Of a stretch of DNA of 64,000 nucleotides, positions 36,596 through 51,855 are shown piece after piece; positions within the stretch are counted from its first letter, which is position 1, and the number at the start of each line of letters is the position of its first letter. The translations under genes were made by a program, and so were the position numbers. Location: contig OZ255717.1 of assembly GCA_965277145.1 (NCBI GenBank), forward strand, positions 435,626 to 499,625, given 5' to 3'. Origin of the DNA: Acidobacteriaceae bacterium. GTDB lineage: Bacteria > Acidobacteriota > Terriglobia > Terriglobales > Acidobacteriaceae. The notes under the pieces are model-generated. The model was not told where the DNA came from. It worked only from the letters and a program-made list of their open reading frames with translations, and made no database searches.

Positions 36596-37891
36596 ATGGA
36601 CTCCTTCTTCACACGCTTCAAAAACGCCCTCGTTCTGGTCGCTCTCCTGCTCGCCCAGACAGTCGGCCTCGCCATTCAGGTCCGCCGACCCGTCGAAACC
36701 GGCGCGCCCGACGGTGCCAAACTCACCCTCGCACGCTTCTGGGTCGTCGGCGCCGTCACCCCCGTCGAGCACGTCCTGTTCGCCGGAACCCACGCCATCC
36801 GCTCCACCTGGTCGAACTACCTCGACCTCCGCCACGTCCGACAGCACAACCGCGATCTCCAGTACCAGATCGATCAACTCCGGCTCCAGCAGGCCGCCAT
36901 CGCCGAAGACGCCGTCCAGGGCCATCGCCTCCAGAGCATGCTCGCCTTCCAGCAAAAATACGTCTCCGCCACCGTCGCCGCGCAGGTCATCGGCACCAGC
37001 GGCACCGACATCTCCCGCGTCCTCTACATCGATAAAGGCACCGACGAGGGCCTCAAGCCCGACCAGGCCGTCATTACCCCCGACGGCATCGTCGGCAAGC
37101 TGCGCGACGTCTTCCCCCACACCAGCCAGGTCCTCCTCATCAACGACCAAACCTCCGGCGCCGGCGTCATCCTCGCCAACACACGCATCCGCGCCATCCT
37201 TCGCGGCACCACCGGAGGTCGCCTCGAGATCAACAACCTCACCGAAGACAACCGCATCCAGCCCGGCGAACCCGTCCTCACCTCCGGCGGCGATCAGATC
37301 TTCCCCCGCGGACTCTCCGTCGGCACCATCGAATCCGTCCGCCCCGACCCCGAAAACCAGCCCTACACCGCCATCCGCGTCCGTCCCACCGCCAACCTCT
37401 TCCAGCTCGAAGAGGTCCTCGTCATCACCGGCACCGATCCCAAACTCCCCGCCGGAACGCTCGACGTCCTCGCCCAAGGCGCCCGTGCCGGCGCCGTCGC
37501 CCGCGCCGCCGCGGAAAAGGCCGCCGCCGCCCGCGCGGCCAGCACCGCCCAGGATGCCCAGGACGCCCGCTCCGCCGCCGAAATCGTCGCCGAACGCCTA
37601 CCCAGCCTCCACGATCCAAACGCCCCCGACCCAAAGGGGAACGCCCCCAACACACCCGCAAAACCCGTCGACCCGAAGACAGCCGGCGGCGTCGTCCCCC
37701 ATCCCGCCCCCGTCCTCCGCCCAGATCGCTACAGCCCCGGAAGCACGCCACCCGCATCCGCGCTCACCCCCGGCGTCACAGGCGCAACCCTCGCTCCACC
37801 CCCATCCGCCCCGCCCCCGCACCGCACCGTAAAACCATCGAAATCGCCCCAGCCCAGCCCGCCCCCCGAAACAGACCAACCCCAACCCTGA
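36596..37891 (+). CDS. mreC: Rod shape-determining protein MreC with Pro/Ala-rich tail
   Basis: TM, coiled coil, AQVIG...IDKG..EG, VITPDGIVG, VLTSGGDQIFPRGL.VG. Confidence 0.95.
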   Translation: MDSFFTRFKNALVLVALLLAQTVGLAIQVRRPVETGAPDGAKLTLARFWVVGAVTPVEHVLFAGTHAIRSTWSNYLDLRHVRQHNRDLQYQIDQLRLQQAAIAEDAVQGHRLQSMLAFQQKYVSATVAAQVIGTSGTDISRVLYIDKGTDEGLKPDQAVITPDGIVGKLRDVFPHTSQVLLINDQTSGAGVILANTRIRAILRGTTGGRLEINNLTEDNRIQPGEPVLTSGGDQIFPRGLSVGTIESVRPDPENQPYTAIRVRPTANLFQLEEVLVITGTDPKLPAGTLDVLAQGARAGAVARAAAEKAAAARAASTAQDAQDARSAAEIVAERLPSLHDPNAPDPKGNAPNTPAKPVDPKTAGGVVPHPAPVLRPDRYSPGSTPPASALTPGVTGATLAPPPSAPPPHRTVKPSKSPQPSPPPETDQPQP

Positions 37892-37969
37892 CCGCACCCT
37901 CATCTCAGCATCCCTAACCCGACCAACCCAACCCAAACGCACCCACCCACAAACCAAACGCACCCACCC

Positions 37970-38494
37970 ATGGCCACCCACAGCTACACCTCGCGCCGCG
38001 AACTCGAAGAGCACAGCTTCCACCCAGCCGTCGCGCTCCTCGTCCCCCTCGCCGCCATCCTCCTCCAGTCGCTCCTCCCCAAGCCCTTCCCCCGCCTCTA
38101 TCTCCTCGATCTCCCCCTGATCGTCACCATCTTCTTCGCCGTCTCCCGCCGCTCCCCCGTCGCCGGCGCGCTCACCGGAGCCGCCATCGGCCTCCTCCAG
38201 GACTTCCTCACCGGACAGCCCATCGGCATCAACGGCATGAGCAAAACCATCATCGGCTACATCGCCGCCTCCATCGGCGTACGCGTCGACGTCGAAGCCC
38301 TCACCACACGCCTCCTCATGAACTTCCTCTTCTCCCTCCTCAACTCCCTCCTCCTCTACATCATCCTCCGCCGCCTCGTCGGCCTCACCGACTACCACCT
38401 CCTCTGGCCCCGCGAACTCCTCCGCGCCGCCGTCAACACCGTCGTCGCCCTCCCCATCTTCGTCCTCCTCGACCACACCAAACGCCCCGAGTAG
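37970..38494 (+). CDS. mreD: Rod shape-determining protein MreD
   Basis: Five TM helices, GLLQDFL..PIG motif, directly after mreC. Confidence 0.92.
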   Translation: MATHSYTSRRELEEHSFHPAVALLVPLAAILLQSLLPKPFPRLYLLDLPLIVTIFFAVSRRSPVAGALTGAAIGLLQDFLTGQPIGINGMSKTIIGYIAASIGVRVDVEALTTRLLMNFLFSLLNSLLLYIILRRLVGLTDYHLLWPRELLRAAVNTVVALPIFVLLDHTKRPE

Positions 38495-38512
38495 ACCCGA
38501 GATCGCACCCTG

Positions 38513-39895
38513 TCAGCGGGAGCCCCCGGTACTCGGACCCGTCGGTACAGGCCAAAGCTGCGCGATGCGATCTACAACTTGATCCACCAGGCTGCCTGCA
38601 GCGAACGCGTTCTCCGGCGCCACCTGAACAAAGCGAATCCTGCCGTCGTGATCCGTCGCGACCAGCAGAGGATAGTCCGTCGCCGCGAACACACGGCTGG
38701 GCAGGTCCGGATCGACCACAAGCGTCGGCGTGCCGCGCAACATCTCGGCTGCAGACTTCGTTGACGCGCTGCCCGCGGCGGTAGCAGCCGCCGGCGCAGG
38801 TGGCGGCTGGCCCGTGTGGGGTCGCCTCGAAGAAGTCACCGCCGGCGCAGGCCCGATCGGCTTTGCCGCTGCCAGCAAGCCGTAAAGATGGACGTCGTCA
38901 TCCACGTGCCTCGCCAGAAACGGCATAAACTGTTTGCCCATCCGAACGCACTGCGCACACCACTCCGGAAAGACAAGCAGAACCGTTGCGCTGCCGTACC
39001 GCGGGTTGATCCGCGGCGTCTCGTTCGCTGCCCCAAAAAGCGACAAACTAGCCGGGATCGCGGGCAGGGGCGTCCCGAGCAAAGCAAACTGACGCCGCAG
39101 GTTCGCAATCTGCAAAGCCTCATCACCGGGAAGATCCGGCGAAAGCGAACTGTCGATCTCAGAGACCGCCGCATCCACAGCCTGCCCCGCGTTCTCAAGC
39201 CCCAGCAGCGTCGGCAACATCAGCGCCGACGCGTAGAGCTCATGCGGCCGAAGCGGCGTCTCCGTACCCACCACCGCTGTCGCCGGCGCCCGCATCTGCG
39301 CGAGAAGGTGCGTCTGCCGCTCCGCCGCAAGATCGATCGCCTTCTCCGTCTGGATGAGCTGCAGGTAGCGAAGAAGCTCCTCGGTCGCCGCCTCCACCGT
39401 CGCTGAATACGGCTCCGTTCGAATCATCTGCTGGGCCGCCGCAAGCGCCCTCGTGGGGTCATTCCGGTGCTGGCCGGCGTCCATCTGCAGGCTCGCGTCC
39501 ACCACGTACGCCAGCGCCTTGGTTGCGGCTGCCGTGCTCTGTGACGCCAGGTCTGTGTCCTTCAGGTACCGCTCGGCAGCGGCGAGCACCTGCGGCCACT
39601 GCTGCCCCAGCGCGCAAAGCCGCGCAAGATCGATCAGAGCGTCGCCCGTATACATCTCGGCCGGCCGCGATCCGCACGCAACCTGCGCCTGCTTGATCGC
39701 AACCGCCAGCGCCCCGGTCTCGATGTCCGACCAGTTCTCAATCGACCGGTGCGTAATCTCCACTGGCCGAACCGCCTGCTCATACGCCGCCCCCGGCGAA
39801 AGTTGCGCATCCGCCGCCGCCGCCCCCGTCTGTGCCCAGGAGATCGCGGCCAACCAGCAAACCAACACGGCGACGGAGACCGAGAGACATCGCAT
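38513..39895 (-). CDS. Exported protein with helical N-region and C-terminal TlpA/thioredoxin-like domain
   Basis: Signal peptide; VLLVFPEWCAQC (WCxxC); YPLLVATDHDGRIRFV. Confidence 0.7.
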   Translation of the reverse strand: MRCLSVSVAVLVCWLAAISWAQTGAAAADAQLSPGAAYEQAVRPVEITHRSIENWSDIETGALAVAIKQAQVACGSRPAEMYTGDALIDLARLCALGQQWPQVLAAAERYLKDTDLASQSTAAATKALAYVVDASLQMDAGQHRNDPTRALAAAQQMIRTEPYSATVEAATEELLRYLQLIQTEKAIDLAAERQTHLLAQMRAPATAVVGTETPLRPHELYASALMLPTLLGLENAGQAVDAAVSEIDSSLSPDLPGDEALQIANLRRQFALLGTPLPAIPASLSLFGAANETPRINPRYGSATVLLVFPEWCAQCVRMGKQFMPFLARHVDDDVHLYGLLAAAKPIGPAPAVTSSRRPHTGQPPPAPAAATAAGSASTKSAAEMLRGTPTLVVDPDLPSRVFAATDYPLLVATDHDGRIRFVQVAPENAFAAGSLVDQVVDRIAQLWPVPTGPSTGGSR

Positions 39896-39933
39896 ACGGC
39901 ACCCTCCGCCCAGAGCGTACCAGAGTCGGTCTA

Positions 39934-40062
39934 GGGACCTCTGCTCAAGTCCCGCCTCGTTAAGGGCACGGCTTCAGCCGTGCCGTAACCGCAACCGATA
40001 GAACGCGGCTTTAGCCGCTGAGGTACGCTTTTGGCTAGCCGAGGCTCTAAATCAGAGGTTCC
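39934..40062. mobile_element. About 128-bp MITE with IS5-like TIRs enclosing two hairpins
   Basis: Ends GGGACCTCTGCTCAAGT / TCTAAATCAGAGGTTCC; flanks CTA(G) and TTAG; internal GGCACGGCTTCAGCCGTGCC and GCGGCTTTAGCCGC. Confidence 0.75.
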
Positions 40063-40833
40063 TTAGAACCCAGCCGCCGCCATCATGTCATTAAACTTCG
40101 TAAAAAACGCCTCATAGCCGTCCCCCTTAGCCGCAAATCGCAACGGCTTCACCCGCTCCACATTGATCTCCGTCGGCGTCGGCGAACTCCCAAGAATCTC
40201 CATCACCTCCGTCAGAAACGCATGGAGCGGCATCGCATTCGGGTCGCTAGCCTGCCGCGCTCCACCTAACTCCGTCTGCACATACGGCGGAATCAGCTCA
40301 ATCACCTCCACCTTGCTTCCCTTCATCTGGTACCGCAGCGACTCGCTGTACGAGTGCATCGCCGCCTTCGTCGCGTTATACGTCGGAAATCCCGCCAACG
40401 GCACAAACGCCAGCCCCGAAGTCACATTCATCACCGTCGCCTCCGCCTGCTTCTTCAGCAACGGGAGCAGCGCCGACGTCAGCCGGATCGGCCCCAGCAG
40501 ATTCGTCGTGATCGTCGCCTCTGCAACGGCGGTGTCCAGCACCTCCCCCGTCAGCTTCTCCGGTCGCATGATCCCCGCATTGTTGATCAGGACGTTCAGG
40601 CGAGGGAACCGCTCGGCCGCCTCCGCTCCAAACCTCTCAATGGCCGCCCCATTCCCCACGTCCAGCGTCACCGACCGCATCCCCGGGTGAGCCGCCGTCG
40701 CCGCGTCCAAAACATCCTTGCGCCGCCCCGCGATAATCACCTCGTTGCCCAACGCCTGCAGTCGCTCCGCCAGCCCCAACCCAATCCCGGAGCCCCCGCC
40801 TGTCACCAAAATCGTGTTGCCCGTCATCTTCAT
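40063..40833 (-). CDS. SDR family oxidoreductase (DltE-like)
   Basis: TGGGSGIG, NVLINNAGI, NVTSGLA, YNATK. Confidence 0.93.
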   Translation of the reverse strand: MKMTGNTILVTGGGSGIGLGLAERLQALGNEVIIAGRRKDVLDAATAAHPGMRSVTLDVGNGAAIERFGAEAAERFPRLNVLINNAGIMRPEKLTGEVLDTAVAEATITTNLLGPIRLTSALLPLLKKQAEATVMNVTSGLAFVPLAGFPTYNATKAAMHSYSESLRYQMKGSKVEVIELIPPYVQTELGGARQASDPNAMPLHAFLTEVMEILGSSPTPTEINVERVKPLRFAAKGDGYEAFFTKFNDMMAAAGF

Positions 40834-40939
40834 CTCTGCTCTCTCCTCATCTCGTCGACACAGCCCGTCTCGCGAGTTCCTGAGAGCATCCTAAAGTCTC
40901 CAGCCTTCTAAAGCTCCAACCGAGCAGCCCGCGGACCAC

Positions 40940-41431
40940 CTAAGCCATCGTGCTGATCAGCATCCCCGTGCTCCGTCCGTTCTGCACAAAGTACTTCGCC
41001 AGCTCCCGAAGCGCACCGCTCGTACTTCCGCTCTCAAGCGACGTCGTCATCTGCGACAGAAGATCGTTCAGCGGATCCGATGTCCCACCCGCCGATGAGC
41101 CGCTGCCGATCGCGACCGACGCCACCTGCATCTTCAGGTCGGCCTTCAACTTACCCAAATCCGACTTCGCCCCAGACGTATCCCCCAATGCCAACGCCCG
41201 CAACAGCGTCGCCAGGTCAGAGGTGATGCCGCTCAGCGTCGCGTCCCCCGTGCCCACCTTCGCGCCCGCCGAACTCCCAGCCGTCCCAGCCGCCCCAGCC
41301 GCCCCAGCCATGCCGACGTCCGTAGTCGACACCTCCCCGGCATCCGCAAACAGCGAAGTATAGTACGAAGCATCCAAGAGAGAACTGGGAGAGATACCCG
41401 AAAGAGACAAGGGGCGATTCCTTTCGATCAC
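40940..41431 (-). CDS. Hypothetical Ala/Gly/Ser-rich helical protein
   Basis: Only plausible ORF in the gap; low-complexity N-half and two helical segments. Confidence 0.55.
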   Translation of the reverse strand: MIERNRPLSLSGISPSSLLDASYYTSLFADAGEVSTTDVGMAGAAGAAGTAGSSAGAKVGTGDATLSGITSDLATLLRALALGDTSGAKSDLGKLKADLKMQVASVAIGSGSSAGGTSDPLNDLLSQMTTSLESGSTSGALRELAKYFVQNGRSTGMLISTMA

Positions 41432-41589
41432 AAAGTCTGAGCTCAGCCTAAAAGCTCACCGCACACCCGCAATATCCCCCAAACAGGCCACCCCGAGCAC
41501 CAAATCCGCTCACCCCCCCAAAAGATCCCGCAACTCCACCGCCCAACCTCCATCCGCGGCAGTCTAAACTGGACAAGACACTCCCCGCG

Positions 41590-43596
41590 ATGAACCTCCC
41601 CTTCCGCACGCGCAAAGCCACCCCGCCCCAACCAGCCCACCCCCCGCGTCCCGAGCCACCGCTCCGCCACCCCCACCGACCCCTCAGCCGCGAAGAAAAA
41701 CTCTCCCCCGCCAAGCTCCACGCCGCCCAGTACGTCATCGCCGCCGTCCTCGCCATCCTCCTCATCGGCCTCTACCGCCTCCAGATCCTCGACCGCACCA
41801 ACTACCGCGTCCTCGCCGAAGCCAACCGCGTCCGCAAAATCCCCGTCCTCGCCCCCCGCGGCCGCCTCTTCGACCGCGAAGGCCGCCTCCTCGTCGGCAA
41901 CTATCCCTCCGTCACCTGCTTCCTCCTCCGCGACCAGATGGCCGACGCCAACCTCGACCTTCCCCTCATCTCCGCCGGCCTCCACCTCCCCGTCGAGCAG
42001 ATCCAGGCCACCATCCGACGCTTCGCCCTCACACCCCAGCTCCAGTCCATCCCCCTCAAAGTCGACATCACCCCCGACGAGCAGGCCTTCCTCGCCGCCC
42101 ACCGCGACGAACTCCCCGAACTCGAAACCCGCGACGACCAGCGCCGACTCTACCCCCGCGATGGCTTCGCCGCCCATCTCACCGGATACGTCGGCGAAGT
42201 CTCCGAAGCCATGCTCGACGACCCCCGCTACGCCTTCTACGACCCCGGCGACGTCGTCGGCCGCTCCGGCGTCGAGCAAACCTACGACGCCCTCCTCCGC
42301 GGAACAGACGGCTCCCGCGACGTCGTCGTCAACTCCCACGGCAAAGAACTCGGCCCCCTCAGCCAGACCTACCCCATCCCCGGCAAAGACCTCAAACTCA
42401 CCATCGACCTCGACATTCAAATGGCCGCCGAAAAAGCCATGCAGGGCAAGGTCGGCGCCATGGTCGCCCTCGACCCTCACACCGGCGAGATCCTCGCCCT
42501 CGTCTCCCGCCCCACCTTCGACCCCAACCAGTTCTCGCAACACCTCACAAAAACCTACTGGAACGAGATCCTCAACAACCCCGATCACCCCCTACTCAAC
42601 AAAGTTACCCAGGCCCAGCTCGCCCCCGGTTCCACCTTCAAAATCATCATGTCCGTCGCCGGCCTCCAGGAACACCAGGCCCAGGACATGAAGGTCTTCT
42701 GCGCCGGCGGCGCCTCCTTCTACGGACACTTCTTCGCCTGCGACAAACACCACGGCTCCGTCGACATCTACCACGCCATCCCGTGGTCCTGCGACACCTT
42801 CTACTACACCCTCGCCAACCGCCTCGGCATCGACACCATCGCCCGCTACGCCACCGCCCTCGGCTTCGCCTCCCGCACCGGCATCGACCTCCCCGACGAA
42901 GCCTCCGGAACCATGCCCTCCACCGCCTGGAAACTCAAAACCCAACACGAAAAATGGTACGCCGGCGAAACTATCTCCGTCGGCATCGGCCAGGGAGCCA
43001 TCGCCGCCACACCCCTCCAACTCGCCCGCGCCATCGGCGGCATCGCCTCCGGTGGCGTCCTCCACCGACCCCACCTCGTCTTCCCCGACGAGGTCCCGCC
43101 CGACCAACTCGAAGCCGTCCACGAAACCTTCTCCGGCTCCGGCGACCGCACCGTCCCCATCTCCACCGAAAATTGGCAGATCATCACCGACGCCATGGCC
43201 GCCACCACCACCTCCGGAACCGCCGCCGCCTCCCACCTCGAAGGCATCGACTTCGCCGGCAAAACCGGCACCGCCCAGGTCATGGGTCACGACGCCCTCG
43301 CTCGCACCGGCAAAAGCCACCGAACCGTCCCCAACGCCTGGTTCGTCGGCATGGCCCCCCGCCGAAACCCCGACATCGTCGTCGCCGTCCTCTGGGAAAA
43401 CGGCGACTGGGGAGCCAACTCCGCCAAACTCGCCGCCCAAGTCATCGACGCCTTCGTCGAAAAACAACGCCAACGCAACGGCAACCTACGCCTGGTAGCC
43501 GAATCCCCCAACCCACACACCCCAACCGCATCCAAACCCGCGGCAAGCCTCTCTGCCGCACCACACACCACTGCCCCAGACGACACCAACCGCTAG
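41590..43596 (+). CDS. mrdA: Penicillin-binding protein 2
   Basis: APRGRLFDR, GSTFK (SxxK), SCD, KTGTAQ. Confidence 0.95.
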   Translation: MNLPFRTRKATPPQPAHPPRPEPPLRHPHRPLSREEKLSPAKLHAAQYVIAAVLAILLIGLYRLQILDRTNYRVLAEANRVRKIPVLAPRGRLFDREGRLLVGNYPSVTCFLLRDQMADANLDLPLISAGLHLPVEQIQATIRRFALTPQLQSIPLKVDITPDEQAFLAAHRDELPELETRDDQRRLYPRDGFAAHLTGYVGEVSEAMLDDPRYAFYDPGDVVGRSGVEQTYDALLRGTDGSRDVVVNSHGKELGPLSQTYPIPGKDLKLTIDLDIQMAAEKAMQGKVGAMVALDPHTGEILALVSRPTFDPNQFSQHLTKTYWNEILNNPDHPLLNKVTQAQLAPGSTFKIIMSVAGLQEHQAQDMKVFCAGGASFYGHFFACDKHHGSVDIYHAIPWSCDTFYYTLANRLGIDTIARYATALGFASRTGIDLPDEASGTMPSTAWKLKTQHEKWYAGETISVGIGQGAIAATPLQLARAIGGIASGGVLHRPHLVFPDEVPPDQLEAVHETFSGSGDRTVPISTENWQIITDAMAATTTSGTAAASHLEGIDFAGKTGTAQVMGHDALARTGKSHRTVPNAWFVGMAPRRNPDIVVAVLWENGDWGANSAKLAAQVIDAFVEKQRQRNGNLRLVAESPNPHTPTASKPAASLSAAPHTTAPDDTNR

Positions 43597-43681
43597 CACT
43601 GGCTTCCGTGATCATGCGTTCGATCAAGCCGGACGTGTTCGCAATTATTTCCGCTATGCCACTTCTCTGGACCGAGCAGCG

Positions 43682-44869
43682 TTAGCCCGGCAAATGGCTA
43701 AGGAAATCCTTCGGAAAATCGTTCTTTAGCATCCTGCGAACTAGACACTTGGTGAGCAGTAGACGGTCAGTGACTGAATGCGTATGAGTCAGATCATCTG
43801 TTGAAAGGGGAAGCTCTCCGCTGCTCCCGAATAAGGCGTGTGCGATGTTGACTCGCAATGGTTTAAGAACGCTCTCGATCACCTCTGATGCCTTCTGTCC
43901 GCGAACCTCCTGCGGCACGGCCGACTCGAAAGTGGAGAGATCGAACTCCCGGCGAACGTAGAATAAACCTTCCAGCCATCTTCCGATCTCAGCAGATGTA
44001 CTAGGCAGCACTTCGTCAGGCACGGTATAGGTTGCATTAGCTCTCTTAGCTTCCCGTGCAAGCCGCGTTCTCCGTGCGCTTGAGGCTTCTAGAATCTTGA
44101 ACAAACACAGAAACTGATAAACCGGGCTATTTGTGTTCAACGCCTCACGATAGAGAGCGGCATAACTCCGAAACTCTGGTCCGAAGTTGGACGTCGCATG
44201 GATCGCCATCGGAGCTTCGAGATGTCGAGACACGAAGCTGATCGAAACGCTCCCATTGGAGAGTTCCTTAGTTTCCCGGTAGCCGATCTCTAGTGGAATA
44301 TCGAGGTGAACGCTCATGTTGCTCAGCGGTGATGCCAGCGCACGATACGCGATTTCCTCCGCGTGACTCCGGTCACTTGCTTGGAAGGGAGCCGTTAGCA
44401 GCTTGCCCAGATACCCTTTTTCGTTCGGAAGACCAACGAATTCAAACTGGCCGTCGTCAGTTACTCCTACGATTCGAATCTTGTCGGCATCGGGATTACC
44501 TGGCGGGGCAAAGGCCGGTTTGCTAATAGCAAGGTGCGAATCGCCGCGCAGACCGGACGAGAAAGAAAGTTGATGTTCCTGCTGCAACTTGTACCCCGGC
44601 CGATGCAGGATGAATGTGACTTCATAAAGTCCCGAGCTGCCTCCGAGCGGAAGGTTATTGCGTGGATCATGTTCTTGGAAGCGATAGAGCACGTGCAGAG
44701 TCTGATAGGTCCCTGGAAAGCCCCCGAGCGATATTCGCTCTTCAGGGGCGTTCGGGTCCCCTTTGCCAAGAGGAATCTCTCCTGCACTGTTCAGCACAGA
44801 GCCGTGACAGCGCCGATAGGGCAGACTACTACCGCAAGGACACAGGTCCTCTGCTTCAAGCTCTGACAT
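43682..44869 (-). CDS. SEC-C motif protein with C-terminal HEPN-like (MauJ-like) domain
   Basis: CPCGSSLPYRRCHG at the N-terminus; YREALNTNSPVYQFLCLFKILE helix; RVNIAH (R-X4-H); about 47-50% GC in lines counted. Confidence 0.7.
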   Translation of the reverse strand: MSELEAEDLCPCGSSLPYRRCHGSVLNSAGEIPLGKGDPNAPEERISLGGFPGTYQTLHVLYRFQEHDPRNNLPLGGSSGLYEVTFILHRPGYKLQQEHQLSFSSGLRGDSHLAISKPAFAPPGNPDADKIRIVGVTDDGQFEFVGLPNEKGYLGKLLTAPFQASDRSHAEEIAYRALASPLSNMSVHLDIPLEIGYRETKELSNGSVSISFVSRHLEAPMAIHATSNFGPEFRSYAALYREALNTNSPVYQFLCLFKILEASSARRTRLAREAKRANATYTVPDEVLPSTSAEIGRWLEGLFYVRREFDLSTFESAVPQEVRGQKASEVIESVLKPLRVNIAHALFGSSGELPLSTDDLTHTHSVTDRLLLTKCLVRRMLKNDFPKDFLSHLPG

Positions 44870-45035
44870 GCTTACCTCGTAGCAAATCCTAATCGTCTCA
44901 AGCCGCCATCACAATCGTTTCGCGATCAACGAATGAGCTTGATCCAAGCCGCACGGCGGGCCCGCGAAGGCAAGGGTGCTTAAAAGAACCGAAACAACTC
45001 AAGATGGTGTACTTCGCCGGCGCGACTGGGCCCAA

Positions 45036-45052
45036 TCTGAATACTATTCAGA
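45036..45052. promoter_or_regulatory. Perfect inverted repeat before the dual-HEPN gene
   Basis: TCTGAATA-C-TATTCAGA ending 4 nt before ATG 45056. Confidence 0.55.
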
Positions 45053-45055
45053 CCC

Positions 45056-45754
45056 ATGGAGCATACTTGGGCATCAGGTGCAATCGAGCTGATCCGACAT
45101 GCCGACTCCCATATACATCAGGAGACAGCGTTCGATAGGCGGGTTGCCTTTATCAGCATCGACAACTCGGTCGAAACCTCGATTAGAACTTTCTTGTCAC
45201 TTCCATCGTCGAAGTCGGGCGTCAGAATACAGCGAAAAGATATCGAGGCCGTGGAGAACAGCTTTCCGGGCCTCGTTGCTCTTCTCTGGCAGCACGCGGC
45301 CGGCTGGTTGACCGGTATCGATGACGCTGACATTGAGCACTACCATCGTATTCGCAACAAGCTCTATCACGATGGAACCGGGCTAAGCGTAGATGTGCAG
45401 TATTTGCTGGCCTATAGACAGATTGCCGTCTTGCTTCTCAAGAATCTTTTCAGGGTGGATCTAGGAGAGCCCAAACCGGCGCCAACACTCGAGCGGCTCA
45501 TCGTCCTTTGGAACCAGATTGAAGAAACGTTGGAAGGCAAGCTCAAAAAGGCAGGAATAGTGCACCGTCATACATTTTTCTGGGAAGAGGCGATGCTGGC
45601 CGACGTGATAACCGGCGATGACATTCGCCGGCTGACCGAACTCAGAATGATACGCAACACCCAAGTACATTCTTCAGATATTGACCGTGCAGATGTCGAA
45701 AGAGCGGTTTCCCTCGCCGAAAACTTGCTTTCGAAGCTAAAACAAAAACCTTGA
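45056..45754 (+). CDS. Putative tandem (dual) HEPN-domain protein
   Basis: All-helical 232 aa; RNKLYH and RNTQVH motifs, each downstream of an E-bearing helix (IDNSVE; WNQIEE). Confidence 0.7.
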   Translation: MEHTWASGAIELIRHADSHIHQETAFDRRVAFISIDNSVETSIRTFLSLPSSKSGVRIQRKDIEAVENSFPGLVALLWQHAAGWLTGIDDADIEHYHRIRNKLYHDGTGLSVDVQYLLAYRQIAVLLLKNLFRVDLGEPKPAPTLERLIVLWNQIEETLEGKLKKAGIVHRHTFFWEEAMLADVITGDDIRRLTELRMIRNTQVHSSDIDRADVERAVSLAENLLSKLKQKP

Positions 45755-45855
45755 ATCGTCCCCCAAGCCGCGACAATCCCCAACGAGCTCCCTCCAGCCC
45801 TTGTTGCCGGCACCTTGGACGCCGGCGCCGCACTCCAGGCCACGTCCCAAAATCC

Positions 45856-46614
45856 CTACGGCGCTGCCGAGAGTGGGGCAGGCCTCGTCGTGGTCGTCTC
45901 GGCGGGACGTGGAACGGCGCGCAGGCTGAAGCTCGCGATGCTGGCCGGGCTCGAGTTCGGACGCACCTGCAGCGTGCCGAGGACCTCGGCCGCCAGAGAT
46001 GTCTGGTCGCGGAGTCGGAAGACAAGAACGCCGGGTTCGATCTCCCTGGCAGACAAGACGTTGAAGCCGCCGGTCTGCTTCCGAAGTCCGATCTGTGCAG
46101 CGGCCGAGGAGTCGAGCGCAACACTCGGCAACGCGCTGCGAAGCCCGGCATAATTAACCTGATTGAAGGCAGCGAGCCAGGCGTAAAAAAGATGGCCGGC
46201 GGGGGTGTCCGGAATCAGGCCCACCTGGTCGCCAAAGCGGGGCAGGTGAACGAGGATCGTCGGGTGAACGGGACTGACGTGGTCCCCGGGGCGCGCGGGC
46301 ACAGGAGCGTCCCCCGGATCTCCGACAGCGATGGTATCGACCTGGGACGGATCGTCCTTGTCGTCCGCGGCGGCTTCGGGTGGGTTGCCGGCCCGTTGCG
46401 CCGCGCCGGAGTTGGCAGAACTGAGATGCGCATGTCCGTTGTGACCCAGGGCATAGAGCACGGGGGAAAGCGCACCGATCGCGGCCACGGTCGCGAGCAG
46501 GATCGCTCCGGGACGGAGCGGCTGCCGCCCCGTGAGGTAAAAGTTGGGCGCGGCAACAGGCCGAGCTCCGGCTGAACGGGCCTGCTGCATCGTGCTGGTG
46601 CTGGGTGGAAGCAC
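45856..46614 (-). CDS. Membrane-anchored protein carrying a stand-alone copy of the S41 peptidase N-terminal domain
   Basis: IPDTPAGHLFYAWLAAFN...TGGFNVLS...FSLRAVP aligns collinearly with the N-terminus of the protein at 47192. Confidence 0.7.
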   Translation of the reverse strand: MLPPSTSTMQQARSAGARPVAAPNFYLTGRQPLRPGAILLATVAAIGALSPVLYALGHNGHAHLSSANSGAAQRAGNPPEAAADDKDDPSQVDTIAVGDPGDAPVPARPGDHVSPVHPTILVHLPRFGDQVGLIPDTPAGHLFYAWLAAFNQVNYAGLRSALPSVALDSSAAAQIGLRKQTGGFNVLSAREIEPGVLVFRLRDQTSLAAEVLGTLQVRPNSSPASIASFSLRAVPRPAETTTTRPAPLSAAP

Positions 46615-46649
46615 GCTGTCCTCCGGAAAACCATTCCATTATACTCCGG

Positions 46650-46667
46650 TGCATAAGCGCTTATGCA
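46650..46667. promoter_or_regulatory. Putative MarR operator
   Basis: Perfect 18-bp palindrome TGCATAAGCGCTTATGCA in the short divergent intergenic region. Confidence 0.65.
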
Positions 46668-46685
46668 TGTGCTACTCTCATCCCC

Positions 46686-47195
46686 GTGAAGCGCGGCCTA
46701 GGCACACAACTCCGACATCTAACCGATCTCCTCGACGGAGCCGTCGCTGAGGCGTACAAAAAGGACGGCCTCACCTATCGGCCGCGGTACACACCCGTCA
46801 TGCGCGCGTTAGTGGCCGACGGTCCAGGCAGCGTCACACAGATCGCCCAGACCTCTGGAATCACCCAGCCCGCCGCCACCCAGACCATCGCCCTCATGAT
46901 CCGCGAAGGCCTTCTCTCCGCCGAGCCGAGCGCAACCGATAACCGACAAAAGCTGATCCGGATCACCCCGTACGGATGCAGGCAACTGCCGCGCCTGGAG
47001 GCTTGTTGGAACGCCGCAACCGCTGCCGCAAACAGCCTCGATGCCGACCTCCCATTCCCTCTGTCCGAGCTTCTGGACCTCGCAATCCATGCGCTTGCGA
47101 AACAAACATTCGCGGAGCGTATCGACTCTGCTCGCCAAGACCAAGCGAACCGCCATCCCGCAAAAAAACGACAAAAGAAAGAGGCAAGAAAATGA
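46686..47195 (+). CDS. MarR family transcriptional regulator
   Basis: GSVTQIAQTSGITQPAATQTIALMIREGLL...DNRQKLIRITPYG winged HTH; GTG start chosen. Confidence 0.88.
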   Translation: MKRGLGTQLRHLTDLLDGAVAEAYKKDGLTYRPRYTPVMRALVADGPGSVTQIAQTSGITQPAATQTIALMIREGLLSAEPSATDNRQKLIRITPYGCRQLPRLEACWNAATAAANSLDADLPFPLSELLDLAIHALAKQTFAERIDSARQDQANRHPAKKRQKKEARK

Positions 47196-48535
47196 TTGTT
47201 AGACTCCTGAGTCGCATGATGGCCTTGGTCCTCCTGTGCGCAGCCCCGGCCTTGGCCCTCCTGTGTGCAGGCCCTGCCTTGGCGCAACTTCGACCCTCCG
47301 TAATCATTCCAGACACCCCCGCCGGACAGACCTTGCAGGCGTGGCTTCAAGCCTTCAACAGTGGCGATCGCACAAAGCTCGAAGCCTACGTAAAAACACT
47401 CGATCCTACGCAATCCGTCGACGGTATGCTGGCGTTTCACAACGGCACGGGAGGCTTCGATCTGCTCTCGATCGAAAGCAGCGAGCCCCTCCACATCCGC
47501 TTCCGAGTCAAAGAAAAGTCCAGCCCGACCAATGCACTCGGCAATCTGTCTGTGCAGCCTGGTCAACCTGCGGTAGTCAAGACCTTCAACATGCGTGCCC
47601 TTCCACCCGGCGTCACACCGGTCGATGTCCACGTCGACGCGGCCATGCGAGATCGTGTGATCCAAGGTGTCGCAACCAATCTAAGCACCGCCTACATAGA
47701 CGCCGCCGTCGCCCAGCAGATGATCGCTTCCCTCCAAACACGCGCCGCAAAGGGCGACTACAACGCCATCACGGACGGCGACGCCTTTGCCATGCGCCTC
47801 ACCCAAGACCTGCAGGCCGTCAGCCACGACAAACACCTCCGCGTCATGTTCAACCCGTTCAGTATGCCTGCGCGCAGCGAGCCCACCCCTGAAGACATCG
47901 CGCGCTTTCACGAGCATCTCAGACATATCAACTGCGGCTTCGAAAAAGTCGAACTCCTGCCCAGCAACATCGCCTACGTCAAGTTCAATGAATTCGCGGA
48001 TGCCTCTTTCTGCGGATCGACCGTCGCTTCTGCTATGGGCTTCATCGAGCATGCCGATGCCGTCATCTTCGACCTGCGCGAAAACGGTGGAGGCCAGCCG
48101 GCCATGGTCACCCTGATCGCCAGCTATCTGTTCGATCACCCTACCCACCTCATCGACATCTACAACCGTCAGGAAAACTCCACCGTCCAGAACTGGACCC
48201 TCTCCTACCTCCCAGGCCTCCGGCTAACCAAGCAGCCCGTCTACGTCCTCACCGCAAGCAGAACCTTCTCCGGCGCCGAGGAGTTCGCCTTTGATCTCCA
48301 AAATCAGAAACGCGCCACCATCGTCGGCGAGGTCACCGGCGGCGGCGCTCATCCCGTCTCCGGCCATCCCATCGCCGAATACTTCGAAATCGGCGTGCCC
48401 TTCGCCAAGTCACTCGATCCCGTGACCGAGACCAACTGGGAAGGCACCGGCGTCACGCCAGACGTCAAGGTCCCGGCAGCCGACGCACTCGCCACAGCCG
48501 AAAAGCTCGCACGGGCAAAGCTTCAGGAGAAGTAA
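47192..48535 (+). CDS. S41 family (IRBP-like) secreted peptidase
   Basis: LSHDKHL-like VSHDKHL, NIAYVK, IFDLRENGGG, RTFSGAEEF, IVGEVTGGG, NWEGTGVTPD; overlaps the MarR stop (ATGA). Confidence 0.93.
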   Translation: MIVRLLSRMMALVLLCAAPALALLCAGPALAQLRPSVIIPDTPAGQTLQAWLQAFNSGDRTKLEAYVKTLDPTQSVDGMLAFHNGTGGFDLLSIESSEPLHIRFRVKEKSSPTNALGNLSVQPGQPAVVKTFNMRALPPGVTPVDVHVDAAMRDRVIQGVATNLSTAYIDAAVAQQMIASLQTRAAKGDYNAITDGDAFAMRLTQDLQAVSHDKHLRVMFNPFSMPARSEPTPEDIARFHEHLRHINCGFEKVELLPSNIAYVKFNEFADASFCGSTVASAMGFIEHADAVIFDLRENGGGQPAMVTLIASYLFDHPTHLIDIYNRQENSTVQNWTLSYLPGLRLTKQPVYVLTASRTFSGAEEFAFDLQNQKRATIVGEVTGGGAHPVSGHPIAEYFEIGVPFAKSLDPVTETNWEGTGVTPDVKVPAADALATAEKLARAKLQEK

Positions 48536-48578
48536 AAGAGAGCAGCCGCACCAGACCAATCTGCCCTTTCCCCGCTTT

Positions 48579-48682
48579 GTTAAGGGCCACGGCTTCAGCC
48601 ATGCCGTAACCGCGACCGATGCAATGCGGCTTAGCCGCTGAGGTACGCTTCCGACTAGCCCAGAGACTAAATCAGACCCTCC
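48579..48682. mobile_element. Second copy of the 39.9-kb hairpin MITE
   Basis: GTTAAGGGCCACGGCTTCAGCCATGCCGTAACCGC...GCGGCTTAGCCGCTGAGGTACGCTT...CTAAATCAGACCCTCC; right TIR recognisable, left unclear. Confidence 0.75.
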
Positions 48683-49726
48683 CTATCGCCGGCCCGCGAA
48701 ATGAATCAGCAACGGCAGCACCACACCCACCACCACAAGCCCACCCAGAATCACCCATGAGACCGGCCGTCCAAAGTTCATCGTGTACCCCACACCTTCG
48801 CGCTTCGGCACCATCAGCGCCCCATCCTCCGGGTTAAAGTACAGCAGACCGCCCTTCCAGAACCGGTCTTCCGTCGTCCTCTGCGCCGCCAGCACCGCCT
48901 CCGGCATCTGCATCGACCGGTACACGAGATACACCACCAGCCCCAGCGAGCAGCACATCGAGCCAAGCACCACCATCGGCGCCGGCACCGCCGGATCGTG
49001 CGCCAGAGCCGACAAACTGATCGTGCAAAACAACAGCGAGATCATCCAGGCCACCCCGCGAAGCGCGTTCCTGGTCAGCCGCAACATCGCCGGCCGCCCA
49101 GCATGACCCGGCGAAGATCGCCCCGCAAGCTCCCCCAGCAAAGTCAACACCATCACCAGCACCCCAGCCACAACGAGAGGCCCAAAGAGACTCAGCACAT
49201 CCCGTCCGCCCCACCCATCCGGCCTGCCGTCCATCCCCCAATGGATCGGAAACCTCGCCGGGATCGTGTCCCACCGAAACCACAGCACCCCCGCACTGAC
49301 GATCAGCGGCAACATCGCCGCAAGCGTCCCCGGCCACCACGTCCTCTCATCGCTTCGCACGGTCAGCGACGCTCTCCGAACCGCACGGCCCCCGCTGCGA
49401 AACGGCCTCAGCTCTCCCCACGTCCTCACCCACAGCCAAAGCAGACCCACACCCTCCCAAGCCGCCGAGACGCCCACCATCCAGCCATGCCCCTGCAGAA
49501 GTCCCAGCGACGCGAGCCCGATCGAGCTGACACAGATCCCCGCCGCAGCAACCGCATACCCGCGCTTCATCCGCCGAGCGTCCGCACCGCGGGCAAACTC
49601 ATCCGAGACCCGCGTTCCCAGCACCATCCCGTCACGGCTCCAAAACAGCGGCAGCAAGCAAGCCCCGGCAGCAGCAAGCATCGGAAACAAGACAGACAAA
49701 AAGACAATCGTGTGCACCACAATCAC
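48683..49726 (-). CDS. DUF1648/DUF5808 membrane protein (SdpI-like immunity type)
   Basis: IPARFPIHWGMDGRPDGW (DUF1648); FWKGGLLYFNPEDGALMVPKREGVGYTMNFG (DUF5808). Confidence 0.85.
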   Translation of the reverse strand: MIVVHTIVFLSVLFPMLAAAGACLLPLFWSRDGMVLGTRVSDEFARGADARRMKRGYAVAAAGICVSSIGLASLGLLQGHGWMVGVSAAWEGVGLLWLWVRTWGELRPFRSGGRAVRRASLTVRSDERTWWPGTLAAMLPLIVSAGVLWFRWDTIPARFPIHWGMDGRPDGWGGRDVLSLFGPLVVAGVLVMVLTLLGELAGRSSPGHAGRPAMLRLTRNALRGVAWMISLLFCTISLSALAHDPAVPAPMVVLGSMCCSLGLVVYLVYRSMQMPEAVLAAQRTTEDRFWKGGLLYFNPEDGALMVPKREGVGYTMNFGRPVSWVILGGLVVVGVVLPLLIHFAGRR

Positions 49727-50106
49727 CCCTGGAGAATGCCCGTTACATCCCGTTCGATCGCCCGGGCAGAGATCCCCTTCAATTGCATCTCCGCAACAAG
49801 TTGGCGAAGCCGTTGCCGAAGCAGCTTCTGTTCCGCCCGCGCAATCGGAAGTCCCGATCCAAGCGGCCGCACCACCGCACGCCGACCGTGGCTCAGGTCG
49901 ATCCAGCCCTCCTCCGCAAGTTCCCGATACGCCTCCGCAATCGTGTTAAAGTGCACCCCGAGCTGAGCCGCCAGCCTGCGCACGGACGGCAACTGATCCC
50001 CGGGAGTGAGTGTCCCCGCATTCAGATGGAGTCGAAGCTGGTCAACCACCTGCCGGTAAGCCGGAACCGGTGACGCAAGATCCACCTCGATCAGAGCTTC
50101 GGCCAT
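49723..50106 (-). CDS. GntR family regulator (YtrA-type, short)
   Basis: PAYRQVVDQLR, LPSVRRLAAQLGVHFNTIAEAYREL; stop overlaps the start of the next gene. Confidence 0.92.
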   Translation of the reverse strand: MAEALIEVDLASPVPAYRQVVDQLRLHLNAGTLTPGDQLPSVRRLAAQLGVHFNTIAEAYRELAEEGWIDLSHGRRAVVRPLGSGLPIARAEQKLLRQRLRQLVAEMQLKGISARAIERDVTGILQG

Positions 50107-50112
50107 AACCCT

Positions 50113-50135
50113 ACTGTATGCTTACCCCATACAGT
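50113..50135. promoter_or_regulatory. Putative GntR operator
   Basis: ACTGTATG-N7-CATACAGT immediately upstream of the GntR ATG. Confidence 0.6.
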
Positions 50136-50151
50136 GTCAACCGAAATCCGC

Positions 50152-50357
50152 AAGAGCAAAGGAAATATCGGCATAGAGGGCATCTGCTCTTTTGTTGTCA
50201 TTCCCAGAGGGGAATCTGCTTCTGCCCTTGCCCTTGCCGTCGCCAGTTTCACCGCCGTCATCCTGAGCGCAGCGAAGGACCCTGTAGTTGCGGTTGCCCT
50301 TCTCCTTGCACTTGCCGTTCCAGTTGCCTCTCGCCTTCTAATCCGACCCGCTATTTA
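50152..50357 (+). repeat. REP-like cassette (type-I cap, A and B units, GTTGCC hexamers)
   Basis: Units at 50197(A) and 50257(B); ends CTAATCCG like the 35.27-kb copy. Confidence 0.8.
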
Positions 50358-50386
50358 GGCTGGCCCAAGTCAGGTTGATCGGTAAA

Positions 50387-51037
50387 TCAAGCCTTCGAGA
50401 GATCCTTGTATGCGTCGCGAATTGCAATTCCCTCGACTCGTAAAGGGCGTTGGTCTCTGGGTCGTCTTTGTAGTAGGGCGCCGCGTCGGACAAGGACCAA
50501 GCCTCCCTTAACCCGCGCGTCTATGGTGAAGCCGCTTTGCCCCGACGCTAACAAACGATCTACCTGATCATAATCTTCCGTAGAGGCCGCCCGGCTGAGT
50601 AGCTCTTCAGCTTCATCAAGATTGGCTTGCGGGATGTCCTTCTCAGGCGGCTGGGCAAGGCTCTTCACTAACTCCATATGCCGTTGAGCAATTTCCTCGA
50701 GCTTGCCTGAAAGCTGAGCACCTGGCACTTGCTCTTGTTTGAGAATGGAGAAAGAGCCAAGGACGGCTTCACGGCTCGCATTAAGCTGACCTGCGAGTTC
50801 TGAGACGCGGCCCTCTGCGGCAGTGCCTGCAGCTTGGAGTAGGTGAGCTACTTCGTCGCTAGTGAATGCGACGATGACGGTGGAACTGGCTCCCGGACCA
50901 TCCGCGAACGCGATGTTTTCACCCAAAACGTACTGCTTCACCGCATCATTCACTGCCTTCACCGCTGCGATGGACTGTGACGGAAGAAGTAGTGTGGTTG
51001 TTGGTGAAACCGATGTTCTTTCCACGCGGTGAGACAT
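50387..51037 (-). CDS. Hypothetical helical protein (lower GC)
   Basis: 216-aa ORF with atypical codon usage, about 50% GC in a counted line; no recognisable motif. Confidence 0.55.
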   Translation of the reverse strand: MSHRVERTSVSPTTTLLLPSQSIAAVKAVNDAVKQYVLGENIAFADGPGASSTVIVAFTSDEVAHLLQAAGTAAEGRVSELAGQLNASREAVLGSFSILKQEQVPGAQLSGKLEEIAQRHMELVKSLAQPPEKDIPQANLDEAEELLSRAASTEDYDQVDRLLASGQSGFTIDARVKGGLVLVRRGALLQRRPRDQRPLRVEGIAIRDAYKDLSKA

Positions 51038-51408
51038 CCCCTGGGCGGCGCATTGTTCCTAGATAAGCTAAGAAGTGAGCGCGCCGCCGCCACGAGTTCG
51101 GGATCGTCATCAGCATTTATCGCCGCGAGATGACGATCGAACGCGATCTTCTTCTCGACTGATTCCGGCTCGGCTCGTAGCTGACTTATGGCTAGCGCTG
51201 CTTCGCTTTGATGGACAAACCGGCGCTTAACGAGTGCCTAAGACCATGGTAGGCCCAGGTCTTTCTTGGCTTGTCCTCGATGCAAAAGATGTCGAGTTGC
51301 TCGAACGGATCTGTAGGCCGTACCCCTGTGGCGCAGTTACTCCATCGCACTCGTACAATTGGATAGGGCGCATAGAGCAGAACACAGGTGGGGAGGAACT
51401 CTTCTCCG

Positions 51409-51640
51409 AAAGGTCTTACTAATGTCTGCTCCTGATAGGTCCGCTTTTCTTGTTGTCATTCCCGGAGGGAATCTGCTTCTGCCGTTGCCGTTGCTCTTGC
51501 CGTTGCCAGTTTCACCGCCGTCATCCTGAGCGAAGCGAAGGACCCCTGTAGTTGCCCCTGCCGTTGCGTTTCGTGTTGTCATTCCCGGAGGAAATCCGCT
51601 CTTCTTTCTCGGGGCGGCAAAACGCTTCCCAAGCTCTCCG
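51409..51640 (+). repeat. REP-like cassette (A-B-A)
   Basis: Units at 51455, 51520 and 51578; left leader AGGTCTTACTAATGTCTGCTCC and right GGGCGGCAAAACGC resemble the 28.3-kb array caps. Confidence 0.8.
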
Positions 51641-51855
51641 GCAAATCGTTCTTGGATCCAAAGTCGGCCGTAAAAATGTGACCATTGAACACCTGTCCGT
51701 GTACCAAGGTCCAGACCTAAGTGCAATGGATTGAAGATTTTAGCGCATAAAGGCCGGGGTGGTGGGGGCCATACCCTTCAAGCGCGTAAGCTCCTCCAGG
51801 GCACGTGACTGAACTTCGCCGGAAACGTTTCCGACGAATCCGGATACAATCCCGG

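Follow-up and report, generated by a model that had tools for sequence, protein, structure and literature searches.

In Cas13, two HEPN domains carried in one chain join into a single RNase site. Swt1 itself is listed as a dyad of HEPN domains in the 2013 HEPN census (PMC3710099), and the toxins of the HepT/MntA type VII toxin-antitoxin modules, as well as the fused MNT-HEPN toxins, are HEPN RNases with an Rx4-6H motif (PMC13000451). Protection against T4 and T7 has been reported for a single-gene integron cassette coding for a HEPN (AbiU2-domain) protein, which is described as dimeric, with one HEPN domain per chain (bioRxiv 10.64898/2026.03.17.712381).

The locus described here lies in a window of 64 kb (the whole stretch of acidobacterial DNA that was analysed) and consists of two genes downstream of mrdA, one coding for a protein with a SEC-C motif (geneA) and the other for a protein with two predicted HEPN domains (geneB). 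The initial annotation took them for a horizontally acquired, possibly co-regulated two-component anti-phage module. The acquisition is borne out by the analysis, and the module is not supported because no intact pair was found at the other loci surveyed.

The segment downstream of mrdA

The open reading frames, the motifs and the 186-bp spacer of the initial annotation were all found at the positions claimed (Table 1). The spacing of the two genes stands, but the wording back-to-back has to be replaced, given that their orientation is divergent, that is, head-to-head.

Table 1. Positions of the features of the locus, counted from the first letter of the window.
Feature	Position	Strand	Description
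mrdA (PBP2)	41590..43596	+	native, left border of the island; Pfam PBP_dimer and Transpeptidase
Left junction	43597..43681	.	mrdA stop to geneA stop, 85 bp; drop in GC
geneA	43682..44869	-	395 aa; SEC-C motif, beta-rich middle domain, MauJ helical domain
MauJ domain (PF17419) of geneA	43724..44164	-	residues 236-382; Pfam
RVNIAH of geneA	43838..43855	-	R339-H344, RxxxxH, candidate catalytic motif
SEC-C zinc motif of geneA	44801..44848	-	residues 8-23, DLCPCGSSLPYRRCHG; Pfam SEC-C match
Divergent spacer	44870..45055	.	between geneA and geneB
geneB	45056..45754	+	232 aa, stand-alone, two HEPN domains (predicted)
First HEPN motif of geneB	45353..45370	+	RNKLYH, R100-H105
Second HEPN motif of geneB	45653..45670	+	RNTQVH, R200-H205
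Right junction	45755..45855	.	return to native composition, GC up to 0.62-0.66

The low-GC patch after mrdA is foreign. It is the lowest-GC 2.2-kb stretch of the window, with a GC of 0.535 (0.535 for geneA and 0.512 for geneB) against a window mean of 0.627 (standard deviation 0.024); the content is thus atypical as claimed, but its value is higher than the 47-50% of the initial annotation. The GC3 of the island genes is 0.55-0.58, versus 0.75-0.93 for native genes, and the GC skew also marks the segment as compositionally foreign. The neighbouring mrdA has a GC of 0.664 and a GC3 of 0.854, its orthologues are 80-82% identical, and the synteny upstream of it is kept (esterases, mreC, mreD). 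Downstream of mrdA the DNA is different in each of the three closest relatives (PBP2 80-82% identical), all of which carry other genes at this site, one of them a PIN toxin pair adjoining mrdA. The contigs of related environmental strains lose their match to the window at ~43516-43538 and rejoin it at ~45818-45820, with a different sequence before each point of return, so that other sequence occupies the interval from ~43530 to 45820. The segment thus has both the atypical composition and the absence from the corresponding site of close relatives that define an islet, and horizontal acquisition is supported by the foreign GC, GC3 and GC skew and by the variability of the segment among the closest relatives and environmental strains. 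The region around mrdA is, in this acidobacterial lineage, a site of accessory-gene turnover. Contigs of run X3, which are fragmentary, short and shallow, hint at other contexts for each gene.

Signatures of insertion were sought at the island and none was found, be it a tRNA gene, flanking direct or inverted repeats, an integrase or attC-like folds; the left junction has no repeat, tRNA or hairpin, the window has no tyrosine recombinase, and there are no repeat arrays in 43000-46800. The fold downstream of geneB, which was checked for resemblance to attC, has a z of -0.8. An integron cassette was consequently rejected for geneB of the window, which has no integrase, inverted repeats or attC, while a homologue from Halomonas described below qualifies as one. 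A phage origin was also rejected, given that both genes are absent from 50,697 phage records and from the IMG/VR contigs.

The absence of rodA next to mrdA, to which the initial annotation had drawn attention, is real, with no RodA homologue found by tblastn anywhere in the window. It is nonetheless uninformative about the island because the relatives also have no rodA adjoining mrdA: in the three closest ones rodA is either separated from mrdA by two other genes, at a distance of 3 kb, or not nearby. Displacement of rodA by the island was rejected for this reason.

The two proteins

On the combined reading of its sequence and its structural model, geneB is a HEPN-fold protein with two predicted HEPN domains, in agreement with the dual-HEPN gene of the initial annotation. 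It carries two RNxxxH motifs. Five of their residues (R100, N101, H105, R200 and H205) do not vary among 69 homologues, N201 is retained by at least 90% of them, and the second motif is aligned onto the first by hhalign. The AF2 model (pLDDT 87.8) is all-helical, and its best Foldseek match in the PDB is the HEPN protein 2hsb (prob 1.0, TM 0.69, rmsd 3.2 Å), with 2q00, Csm6 8jbb, 4nqf and 1ylm also among the matches, the E-values of these PDB matches being weak (at least 0.24). The C-terminal half of geneB of the window scores 22.5 bits against Pfam HEPN_Swt1 (PF18731), which is below the cut-off of 27.5; the same family is matched by 66 of the 69 homologues at E <0.1, with a best value of 2.9e-8. 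Other HEPN-type families (e.g., HEPN_LA2681 and HepT-like) are matched by 1-11 of the 69 members, including weak matches to HepT-like_2 in 8 of them, and no Pfam model matched the N-terminal HEPN domain. The literature was searched for 'Swt1-like HEPN' with nothing relevant found. The geneB family is large and unannotated, with about 980 clusters at 50% identity in at least 10 phyla, and some of the relatives are fused to TIR/SEFIR domains.

For geneA, which has 356 homologues, the initial annotation had proposed a SEC-C plus HEPN-like protein. The SEC-C part holds, with a score for PF02810 above the curated cut-off (23.5 bits versus 20.4), a match in 65 of 67 homologues, and hits of the family profile in the PDB to the zinc-binding tails of SecA and YchJ. 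The MauJ domain is well above its own cut-off (61 bits versus 28) and is found in all 67 homologues. The HEPN part is not confirmed by comparison of profiles or folds: hhalign of geneA against the HEPN domains of geneB gives no match (probability <1%), Foldseek of geneA against the PDB and viral libraries returns no HEPN protein, and the Pfam scan of the 67 members gives only two HEPN-type matches, both at noise level. The AF2 model (pLDDT 80.8) has its strands between residues 55 and 213 and its helices between 231 and 384. The RxxxxH, whose R339 and H344 do not vary in 67 sequences, is at the end of the next-to-last helix, like that of geneB. From the motif and the order of helices, geneA may be called HEPN-like.

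Public sources already name the homologues of geneA MauJ or 'SEC-C motif-containing protein', and no literature was found that links MauJ with HEPN, SEC-C or defence. The Pfam name, 'methylamine utilization protein MauJ', is historical and, to judge from the analysis, misleading for most members.

Judged from their sequences, both genes are functional, because the dN/dS values of 0.03 for geneB and 0.06-0.09 for geneA denote strong purifying selection. The level of conservation, with 60-90% identity across phyla and saturated synonymous sites for both proteins, is unusual for defence genes.

Genomic neighbours of the relatives

The neighbourhoods of 84 geneA loci and 36 geneB loci, drawn from genomes, metagenomes and plasmids, were searched for the other family by tblastn and then with family profiles on all six-frame ORFs. 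The sets comprised 28 geneB loci from species-representative genomes with further metagenome and plasmid loci, and 80 geneA metagenome loci. An intact partner was found at none of these loci, including the 60 geneA loci with at least 1 kb of upstream flank and the 30 geneB loci with at least 1.5 kb, in surveys that were pattern-seeded, favour closer relatives, and address adjacency within 10 kb rather than genome-wide co-occurrence. The two genes, whose joint occurrence across loci would be expected of the proposed module, are thus not found together intact elsewhere. The sole locus with both families (L042) has remnants of them within 1 kb and on the same strand, with geneA interrupted by a stop, an unrelated gene between, and geneB reduced to a decayed fragment.

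Upstream of the two genes, the DNA similarity to other loci ends after ~30 nt in the case of geneA and ~10 nt in that of geneB, and the middle of the spacer (44900-45045) has no match in the 118 loci compared. A sigma-70 consensus promoter or a terminator was sought in the spacer and not found, in a scan that covered promoters of the sigma-70 type and is weak evidence for an acidobacterium. All-against-all clustering of the flanking ORFs revealed no conserved neighbours of geneB, except for tyrosine recombinases in 4 loci, and for geneA only a small upstream DUF2513 ORF in 9 loci. A conserved two-gene defence system was rejected, given that the adjacency of the families is not conserved across unrelated genomes.

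The neighbourhood of defence genes expected from the initial annotation is observed for each family taken separately, with members of both adjoining bona fide defence genes and mobile elements. Neighbours of the homologues match the PADLOC models for GajA and GajB (E about 1e-230), as well as DrmA, bSEFIR, DRT UG19, PDC-S32, HerA and AbiEii, and the systems found beside single copies are Gabija, DISARM, a defence reverse transcriptase, SIR2-HerA, AbiE and, in an integron, PARIS. The latter is the Halomonas locus (L011), in which geneB is flanked on one side by an integron integrase (299 bits, cut-off 265) and on the other by a fused AriAB gene of PARIS, is followed by an attC-like hairpin, and is alone between the recombination sites of its cassette. 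Integrative or conjugative elements and plasmids also carry relatives of geneA and geneB, in the company of ParDE, PIN and AbiE; a relative of geneB is carried by Leptospira plasmids, and geneA is absent from the plasmids of PLSDB. Some contexts of geneB, that in Nitrospira (L122) for instance, consist mostly of housekeeping genes. Against the models of PADLOC-DB v2.0.0, geneB has no match and geneA has only noise-level matches (E 0.005-0.04) restricted to the SEC-C motif. Two uncharacterised and strongly constrained families, recurrent near defence genes and mobile elements, are flagged by these results.

Proposed function of the two genes and comparison with known systems

The patch probably consists of two unrelated, separately mobile single-gene units that were acquired horizontally and are candidate abortive-infection RNases in a hotspot. 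The two genes would be neighbours by chance, or through a shared type of hotspot, and would not be partners. We infer RNase activity, its trigger, phage protection and the role of the SEC-C motif as follows. On the model of Cas13 and of dimeric HEPN proteins (Csm6 and HepT, for example), the two HEPN domains of the geneB chain, each contributing one RNxxxH, would form one composite metal-independent RNA-cleaving site. The protein would be latent until infection and would then cut host or phage RNA, leading to abortive infection. Without an antitoxin, an active HEPN RNase that stands alone would need a mechanism of self-restraint. Should geneB indeed combine a whole HEPN active site within a single chain, it would lend itself readily to biochemistry and serve as a minimal model for the silencing and switching-on of HEPN RNases. 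The protein coded by geneA would be a second, independent candidate, in which the SEC-C zinc knuckle is possibly a tether to the ribosome or to another partner, the beta-rich middle domain possibly a sensor, and the invariant RxxxxH of the MauJ domain may be a HEPN-like nuclease site.

A more specific version can be put forward tentatively, as something that falls short of probable. The geneB family would be one of minimal single-chain dual-HEPN RNases, guide-less, pseudo-dimeric and of 230 aa, that act as a one-gene abortive-infection system, travel as cargo of integrons and defence islands, occur fused to TIR, and owe their conservation to a fixed target in RNA, for instance a site in tRNA or rRNA. 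The SEC-C/MauJ proteins would be a second unrecognised defence family, with the zinc knuckle docking a nuclease on the ribosome.

It is unlikely, although it deserves some weight, that the two genes code for toxins of a selfish or addiction type, or for proteins with cellular roles in RNA metabolism or regulation, and are mobile with no phage protection, MauJ pointing in this case to a role in connection with methylamine metabolism. The presence of both genes on integrative or conjugative elements and plasmids, beside toxin-antitoxin pairs, agrees with such roles, as does a sequence conservation so strong that it is more typical of a fixed cellular target, and the Pfam domain is named after a methylamine-utilisation cluster. 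However, the neighbours of the homologues are overwhelmingly recognised defence genes, fusion to TIR, as seen for geneB, is characteristic of immune proteins, no conserved candidate for an antitoxin is adjacent, and methylamine dehydrogenase genes are found neither in the window nor at any homologue locus examined.

It is improbable that geneB is one half, the toxin, of a module whose other half was missed, either a small peptide or RNA antitoxin in its flanks or a partner encoded in trans. An active RNase should be toxic on its own, small ORFs of 59-65 aa lie directly upstream of geneB in some loci (e.g., L034), and the DUF2513 gene is found upstream of a subset of the geneA homologues; yet the flanks of geneB are unconserved past ~10 nt upstream, no neighbour family recurs at its loci, and the Halomonas cassette contains geneB alone.

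Least credible is one co-regulated two-component anti-phage system, whether of sensor and effector or as a HEPN heteromer, given that the head-to-head arrangement, the shared atypical GC, the remnants at L042 and the contiguity of the pair in at least one environmental sample (a contig of run X2 spans 44494-45752) are set against the lack of an intact partner in any flanked locus, the occurrence of each gene alone in many phyla, on plasmids, in an integron and in defence islands, a similarity limited to each ORF with a spacer that is unique, environmental copies so nearly identical that they are of the same lineage and not independent instances, and copies at L042 that are broken and differ in order and orientation. 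The pair is thus no new system and is unfit for defence catalogues as a two-gene module. Two single-gene units, each a candidate RNase, remain the preferred reading, and it is the single genes that are compared below with what has been described.

The logic of Cas13 would be shared by geneB, which could then work without dimerising. At 232 aa it is far smaller than Cas13 (roughly 900-1300 aa) and has no crRNA-binding lobe; no sequence relationship to Cas13 was detected, there is no CRISPR array or repeat near the gene, and type VI CRISPR-Cas was rejected on the size of the protein and the lack of repeat arrays. The toxins of the HepT/MntA and MNT-HEPN type have the same motif as geneB, the single chain of which contains two copies of the HEPN domain instead of one that dimerises. 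No MNT nucleotidyltransferase gene adjoins geneB in the window or at any locus, and a type VII module was rejected on the absence of this adjacent antitoxin gene and of a recurrent neighbour family. On the side of geneA, the protein is like the Pfam MauJ family (PF17419), scoring above the curated cut-offs for both MauJ and SEC-C, while the description of that family does not include the association with defence islands found here for the relatives of geneA. The Abi2/Swt1 HEPN clade (AbiD/AbiF-type abortive-infection proteins) has, like geneB, an Rx4-6H motif with N after R, and shares with it the helical fold and the single-gene, Abi-like setting; geneB differs in being a compact stand-alone dyad without a PIN, AAA+ or transmembrane partner domain. 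The AbiU2 cassette belongs to a different HEPN family from geneB, and its small HEPN protein in a lone integron cassette has the same setting as geneB of Halomonas.

Composition of the island and its insertion site

The island consists of the SEC-C and MauJ gene (geneA) and the dual-RNxxxH gene (geneB), which lie head-to-head across a spacer of 186 bp, with the ORF positions and divergent arrangement that the initial annotation had described. It is compositionally foreign. Its GC is 0.535 versus a window mean of 0.627, the minimum among all 2.2-kb windows and about 4 sd under the mean; the contrast with the surroundings is real, although the earlier figure of 47-50% was too low. GC3 is 0.55-0.58 in the island genes versus 0.75-0.93 in the adjacent native genes, and the C-over-G skew, strong in native genes, falls to about 0 within the island. 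The plus-strand skew of native genes (e.g., 36000-43500 and 48000-50000) is very strong, at -0.3 to -0.5, and gives rise to many long spurious ORFs in other frames. A search of the island borders for tRNA genes, flanking repeats, integrases and hairpins gave none of these.

Coordinates of features in and around the island
Feature	Position	Strand	Length	Remark
Three genes between mreD and mrdA	38513-41431	minus		460-aa unknown, short-chain dehydrogenase, 163-aa unknown
mrdA (PBP2 gene)	41590-43596			ends 85 bp before the island
Stretch extra relative to L115	~43600 to 54600		about 11 kb
geneA	43682-44869	minus	395 aa
geneB	45056-45754	plus	232 aa
MarR gene	46605-47195
S41 peptidase, longest ORF	46976-48535			overlaps MarR gene by about 220 nt
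Second low-GC patch	50100-51800			GC 0.54-0.57
ORF in second patch	50387-51037	minus	216 aa	GC3 0.525, no Pfam match
Counterpart of L115 DUF4964 glycosidase	54605-56725			follows mrdA in L115

The three closest relatives (L115, L116 and L117), with 80-82% identical PBP2, have the same genes in the same order up to mrdA (Era GTPase, two esterases, mreC, mreD and mrdA), and the content after mrdA is different in each. Within the stretch that is extra relative to L115, the best relative, are the two HEPN-type genes, a 252-aa unknown, MarR, the S41 peptidase, a DUF1648 membrane protein, GntR and a GH2 mannosidase-like gene. In contigs from related environmental strains the match ends at ~43516-43538 and resumes at ~45818-45820, and the sequence preceding the rejoin point varies between samples; this points to alternative inserts here. 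Foreign composition and a site that varies among relatives and environmental strains bear out the proposed horizontal transfer. The absence of rodA, remarked on in the initial annotation, is not caused by the island, because rodA lies 3 kb downstream in L115 and is not nearby in the other two relatives; it is absent from the window.

The genes that separate mreD from mrdA in the window are missing from this position in L115 and L117, where mreD and mrdA are adjacent, and a PIN toxin pair occupies the gap in L116; given the variable downstream side as well, both flanks of mrdA are therefore insertion-prone. The second low-GC patch is possibly another foreign insert. For the S41 peptidase, the signal-peptide-like sequence MIVRLLSRMMALVLL further in suggests a true start downstream of that of the longest ORF.

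The two protein families

The geneB protein carries the motifs RNKLYH (100-105) and RNTQVH (200-205). Both are common to 69 homologues, with R and H invariant in each and N201 present in at least 90%. The AlphaFold model (pLDDT 87.8) is all helical, each motif closing the next-to-last helix of its own half, and its top Foldseek match in the PDB is the solved HEPN domain 2hsb (probability 1.0, TM 0.69), followed by further HEPN proteins and Csm6, with weak E-values. The Pfam Swt1-like HEPN model matches 66 of the 69 family members, the window protein falling slightly below the cut-off, and several other HEPN-type models match subsets of the family. Given these matches, the motifs and the alignment by hhalign of the two halves to each other at their motifs, geneB is accepted as a dual-HEPN protein, as originally claimed. 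A profile search of 1.84 billion representatives returned 980 clusters at E <= 0.001 (685 at E <= 1e-10), mostly of 230-260 aa. Some relatives are fused to other domains (L022, P0365, P0366, P0372 and P0381): at the C-terminus TIR/SEFIR, in proteins of 542-583 aa, or DUF4431, in proteins of about 360 aa, and at the N-terminus GAF.

The SEC-C zinc motif already noted in the geneA protein (residues 8-23) and its MauJ domain (residues 236-382) both exceed the curated Pfam cut-offs; in the PDB, the family profile has no matches other than those to the zinc-binding tails of SecA and YchJ. In the model (pLDDT 80.8), the middle domain (55-213) is rich in beta strands and the C-terminal domain is helical. 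Within the RVNIAH motif, R339 and H344 are invariant in 67 sequences, and their placement in the helix order of the model parallels that of the geneB motifs. Beyond this motif and helix order the label "HEPN-like" did not find support: hhalign gave no match between geneA and the geneB HEPN domains, Foldseek returned nothing significant in the PDB or viral libraries, and HEPN-type Pfam models gave two matches among the 67 members, both at noise level. Because these comparisons show no HEPN homology, the kinship of the MauJ domain with HEPN is kept as a hypothesis. Our literature search found no paper tying MauJ to HEPN, SEC-C or defence, and MauJ goes unmentioned in the 2013 HEPN census (PMC3710099).

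For both genes dN/dS versus the closest homologues is 0.03-0.09, with synonymous sites saturated or nearly so; both genes are functional. Their high cross-phylum identity reflects constraint, not recent spread; such conservation is unusual among defence genes.

Occurrence of geneA and geneB together

The two-component module proposed in the initial annotation is not supported. A survey of 185,579 species, each represented by a single genome, gave 29 geneB loci, in Acidobacteriota, Planctomycetota, Verrucomicrobiota, Nitrospirota, Gemmatimonadota, Armatimonadota, Bacteroidota, Desulfobacterota and several proteobacterial classes, with no geneA relative within 10 kb of any of them. Intact geneB was likewise found at none of 80 geneA loci from a metagenome scan. 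When the pairing test was repeated with family profiles against all six-frame ORFs of 122 loci, the intact pair was present at none of the 84 geneA loci, 60 of which extend upstream by at least 1 kb, and at none of the 36 geneB loci, 30 of which extend upstream by at least 1.5 kb. The sole locus common to both sets, L042 (694-3020), has a geneA with an in-frame stop at 1237-1239, then an unrelated DUF6602 gene on the opposite strand and, beyond it and on the same strand as geneA, a decayed N-terminal fragment of geneB (MENI*APGAVDLFRHAGLHIRLETTFDRRVA); both copies are broken, and the arrangement differs from that of the window.

DNA similarity to other loci extends for geneA from the stop to ~30 nt 5' of the start and for geneB from ~10 nt 5' of the start to near the stop, and spacer positions 44900-45045 have no match at other loci. 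A near-identical pair occurs in several environmental runs, one contig covering 44494-45752; these copies are the same lineage, not independent instances. In run X3, which has the same organism label, contigs at least 99% identical stop matching at 43620, 44941 and 45754 and continue into unrelated sequence. These breakpoints fall at the boundaries of the geneA and geneB units, in contigs that are short and shallow, so that they may be an assembly artefact.

Recurrent neighbours were not found for geneB, except tyrosine recombinases at 4 loci, nor for geneA, except a small DUF2513 ORF upstream at 9 of 84 loci. At those loci (L046-L053 and L098) the ORF, a weak DUF2513 match, is on the same strand and stops a few bases before the geneA homologue. 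The window lacks this ORF, which in that subclade may act as a regulator or partner.

Defence setting and proposed mode of action

Close homologues of each gene are found alone in classic defence islands or mobile elements, and the defence-type setting of the original proposal thus stands. Among geneA homologues, P0134 (77% identical) has a bSEFIR/TIR gene on one side and an NsnB-like ATPase on the other, with DISARM DrmA and Gabija GajA and GajB as further flanking genes; P0152 lies between a UG19 defence reverse transcriptase and PDC-S32, and P0166 has SIR2-HerA nearby. Among geneB homologues, P0002 (89% identical) comes after AbiEi and AbiEii on a mobilisable element that also carries a relaxase and an integrase, P0006 has Gabija-type genes, an integrase and insertion sequences nearby, and P0034 is within a conjugative element; Leptospira interrogans plasmids also carry a relative. 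Neither gene was found in phage genomes. It is now recognised that integron cassettes serve as reservoirs of defence genes. In the chromosomal integron of Halomonas sp. M20 (L011, 8685-12381), geneB is a cassette with an attC-like hairpin (dG -13.7 kcal/mol, z -2.75) after it; on one side lies the divergently oriented integrase, which scores above the NCBIfam cut-off, and on the other, beyond the hairpin, a PARIS AriAB fusion gene (E 6e-191). Protection against T4 and T7 has been reported for a lone HEPN (AbiU2) integron cassette (bioRxiv 10.64898/2026.03.17.712381).

The initial observation was mostly right. Of its interpretation, horizontal transfer and the defence type are supported and the joint module is not: the island is better described as two independent candidates for single-gene defence RNases, located in a variable hotspot, for which we infer RNase activity and protection. 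The geneA protein may be a second effector, independent of geneB, with a putative catalytic R/H pair in the MauJ domain, and its SEC-C knuckle may, by analogy with the known SecA zinc-binding tail, attach it to a partner, for example the ribosome. Of the two uncharacterised families, geneB is the more promising lead, and its TIR-fused relatives are consistent with an immune role. HEPN RNases require two adjacent Rx4-6H motifs; dimerisation usually brings these together, and Cas13 does so with two domains of one chain. Since both motifs are in one chain, the 232-aa geneB protein could be a complete latent RNase, which would be triggered upon infection, and it resembles Cas13 in having its pair of HEPN motifs within a single chain.
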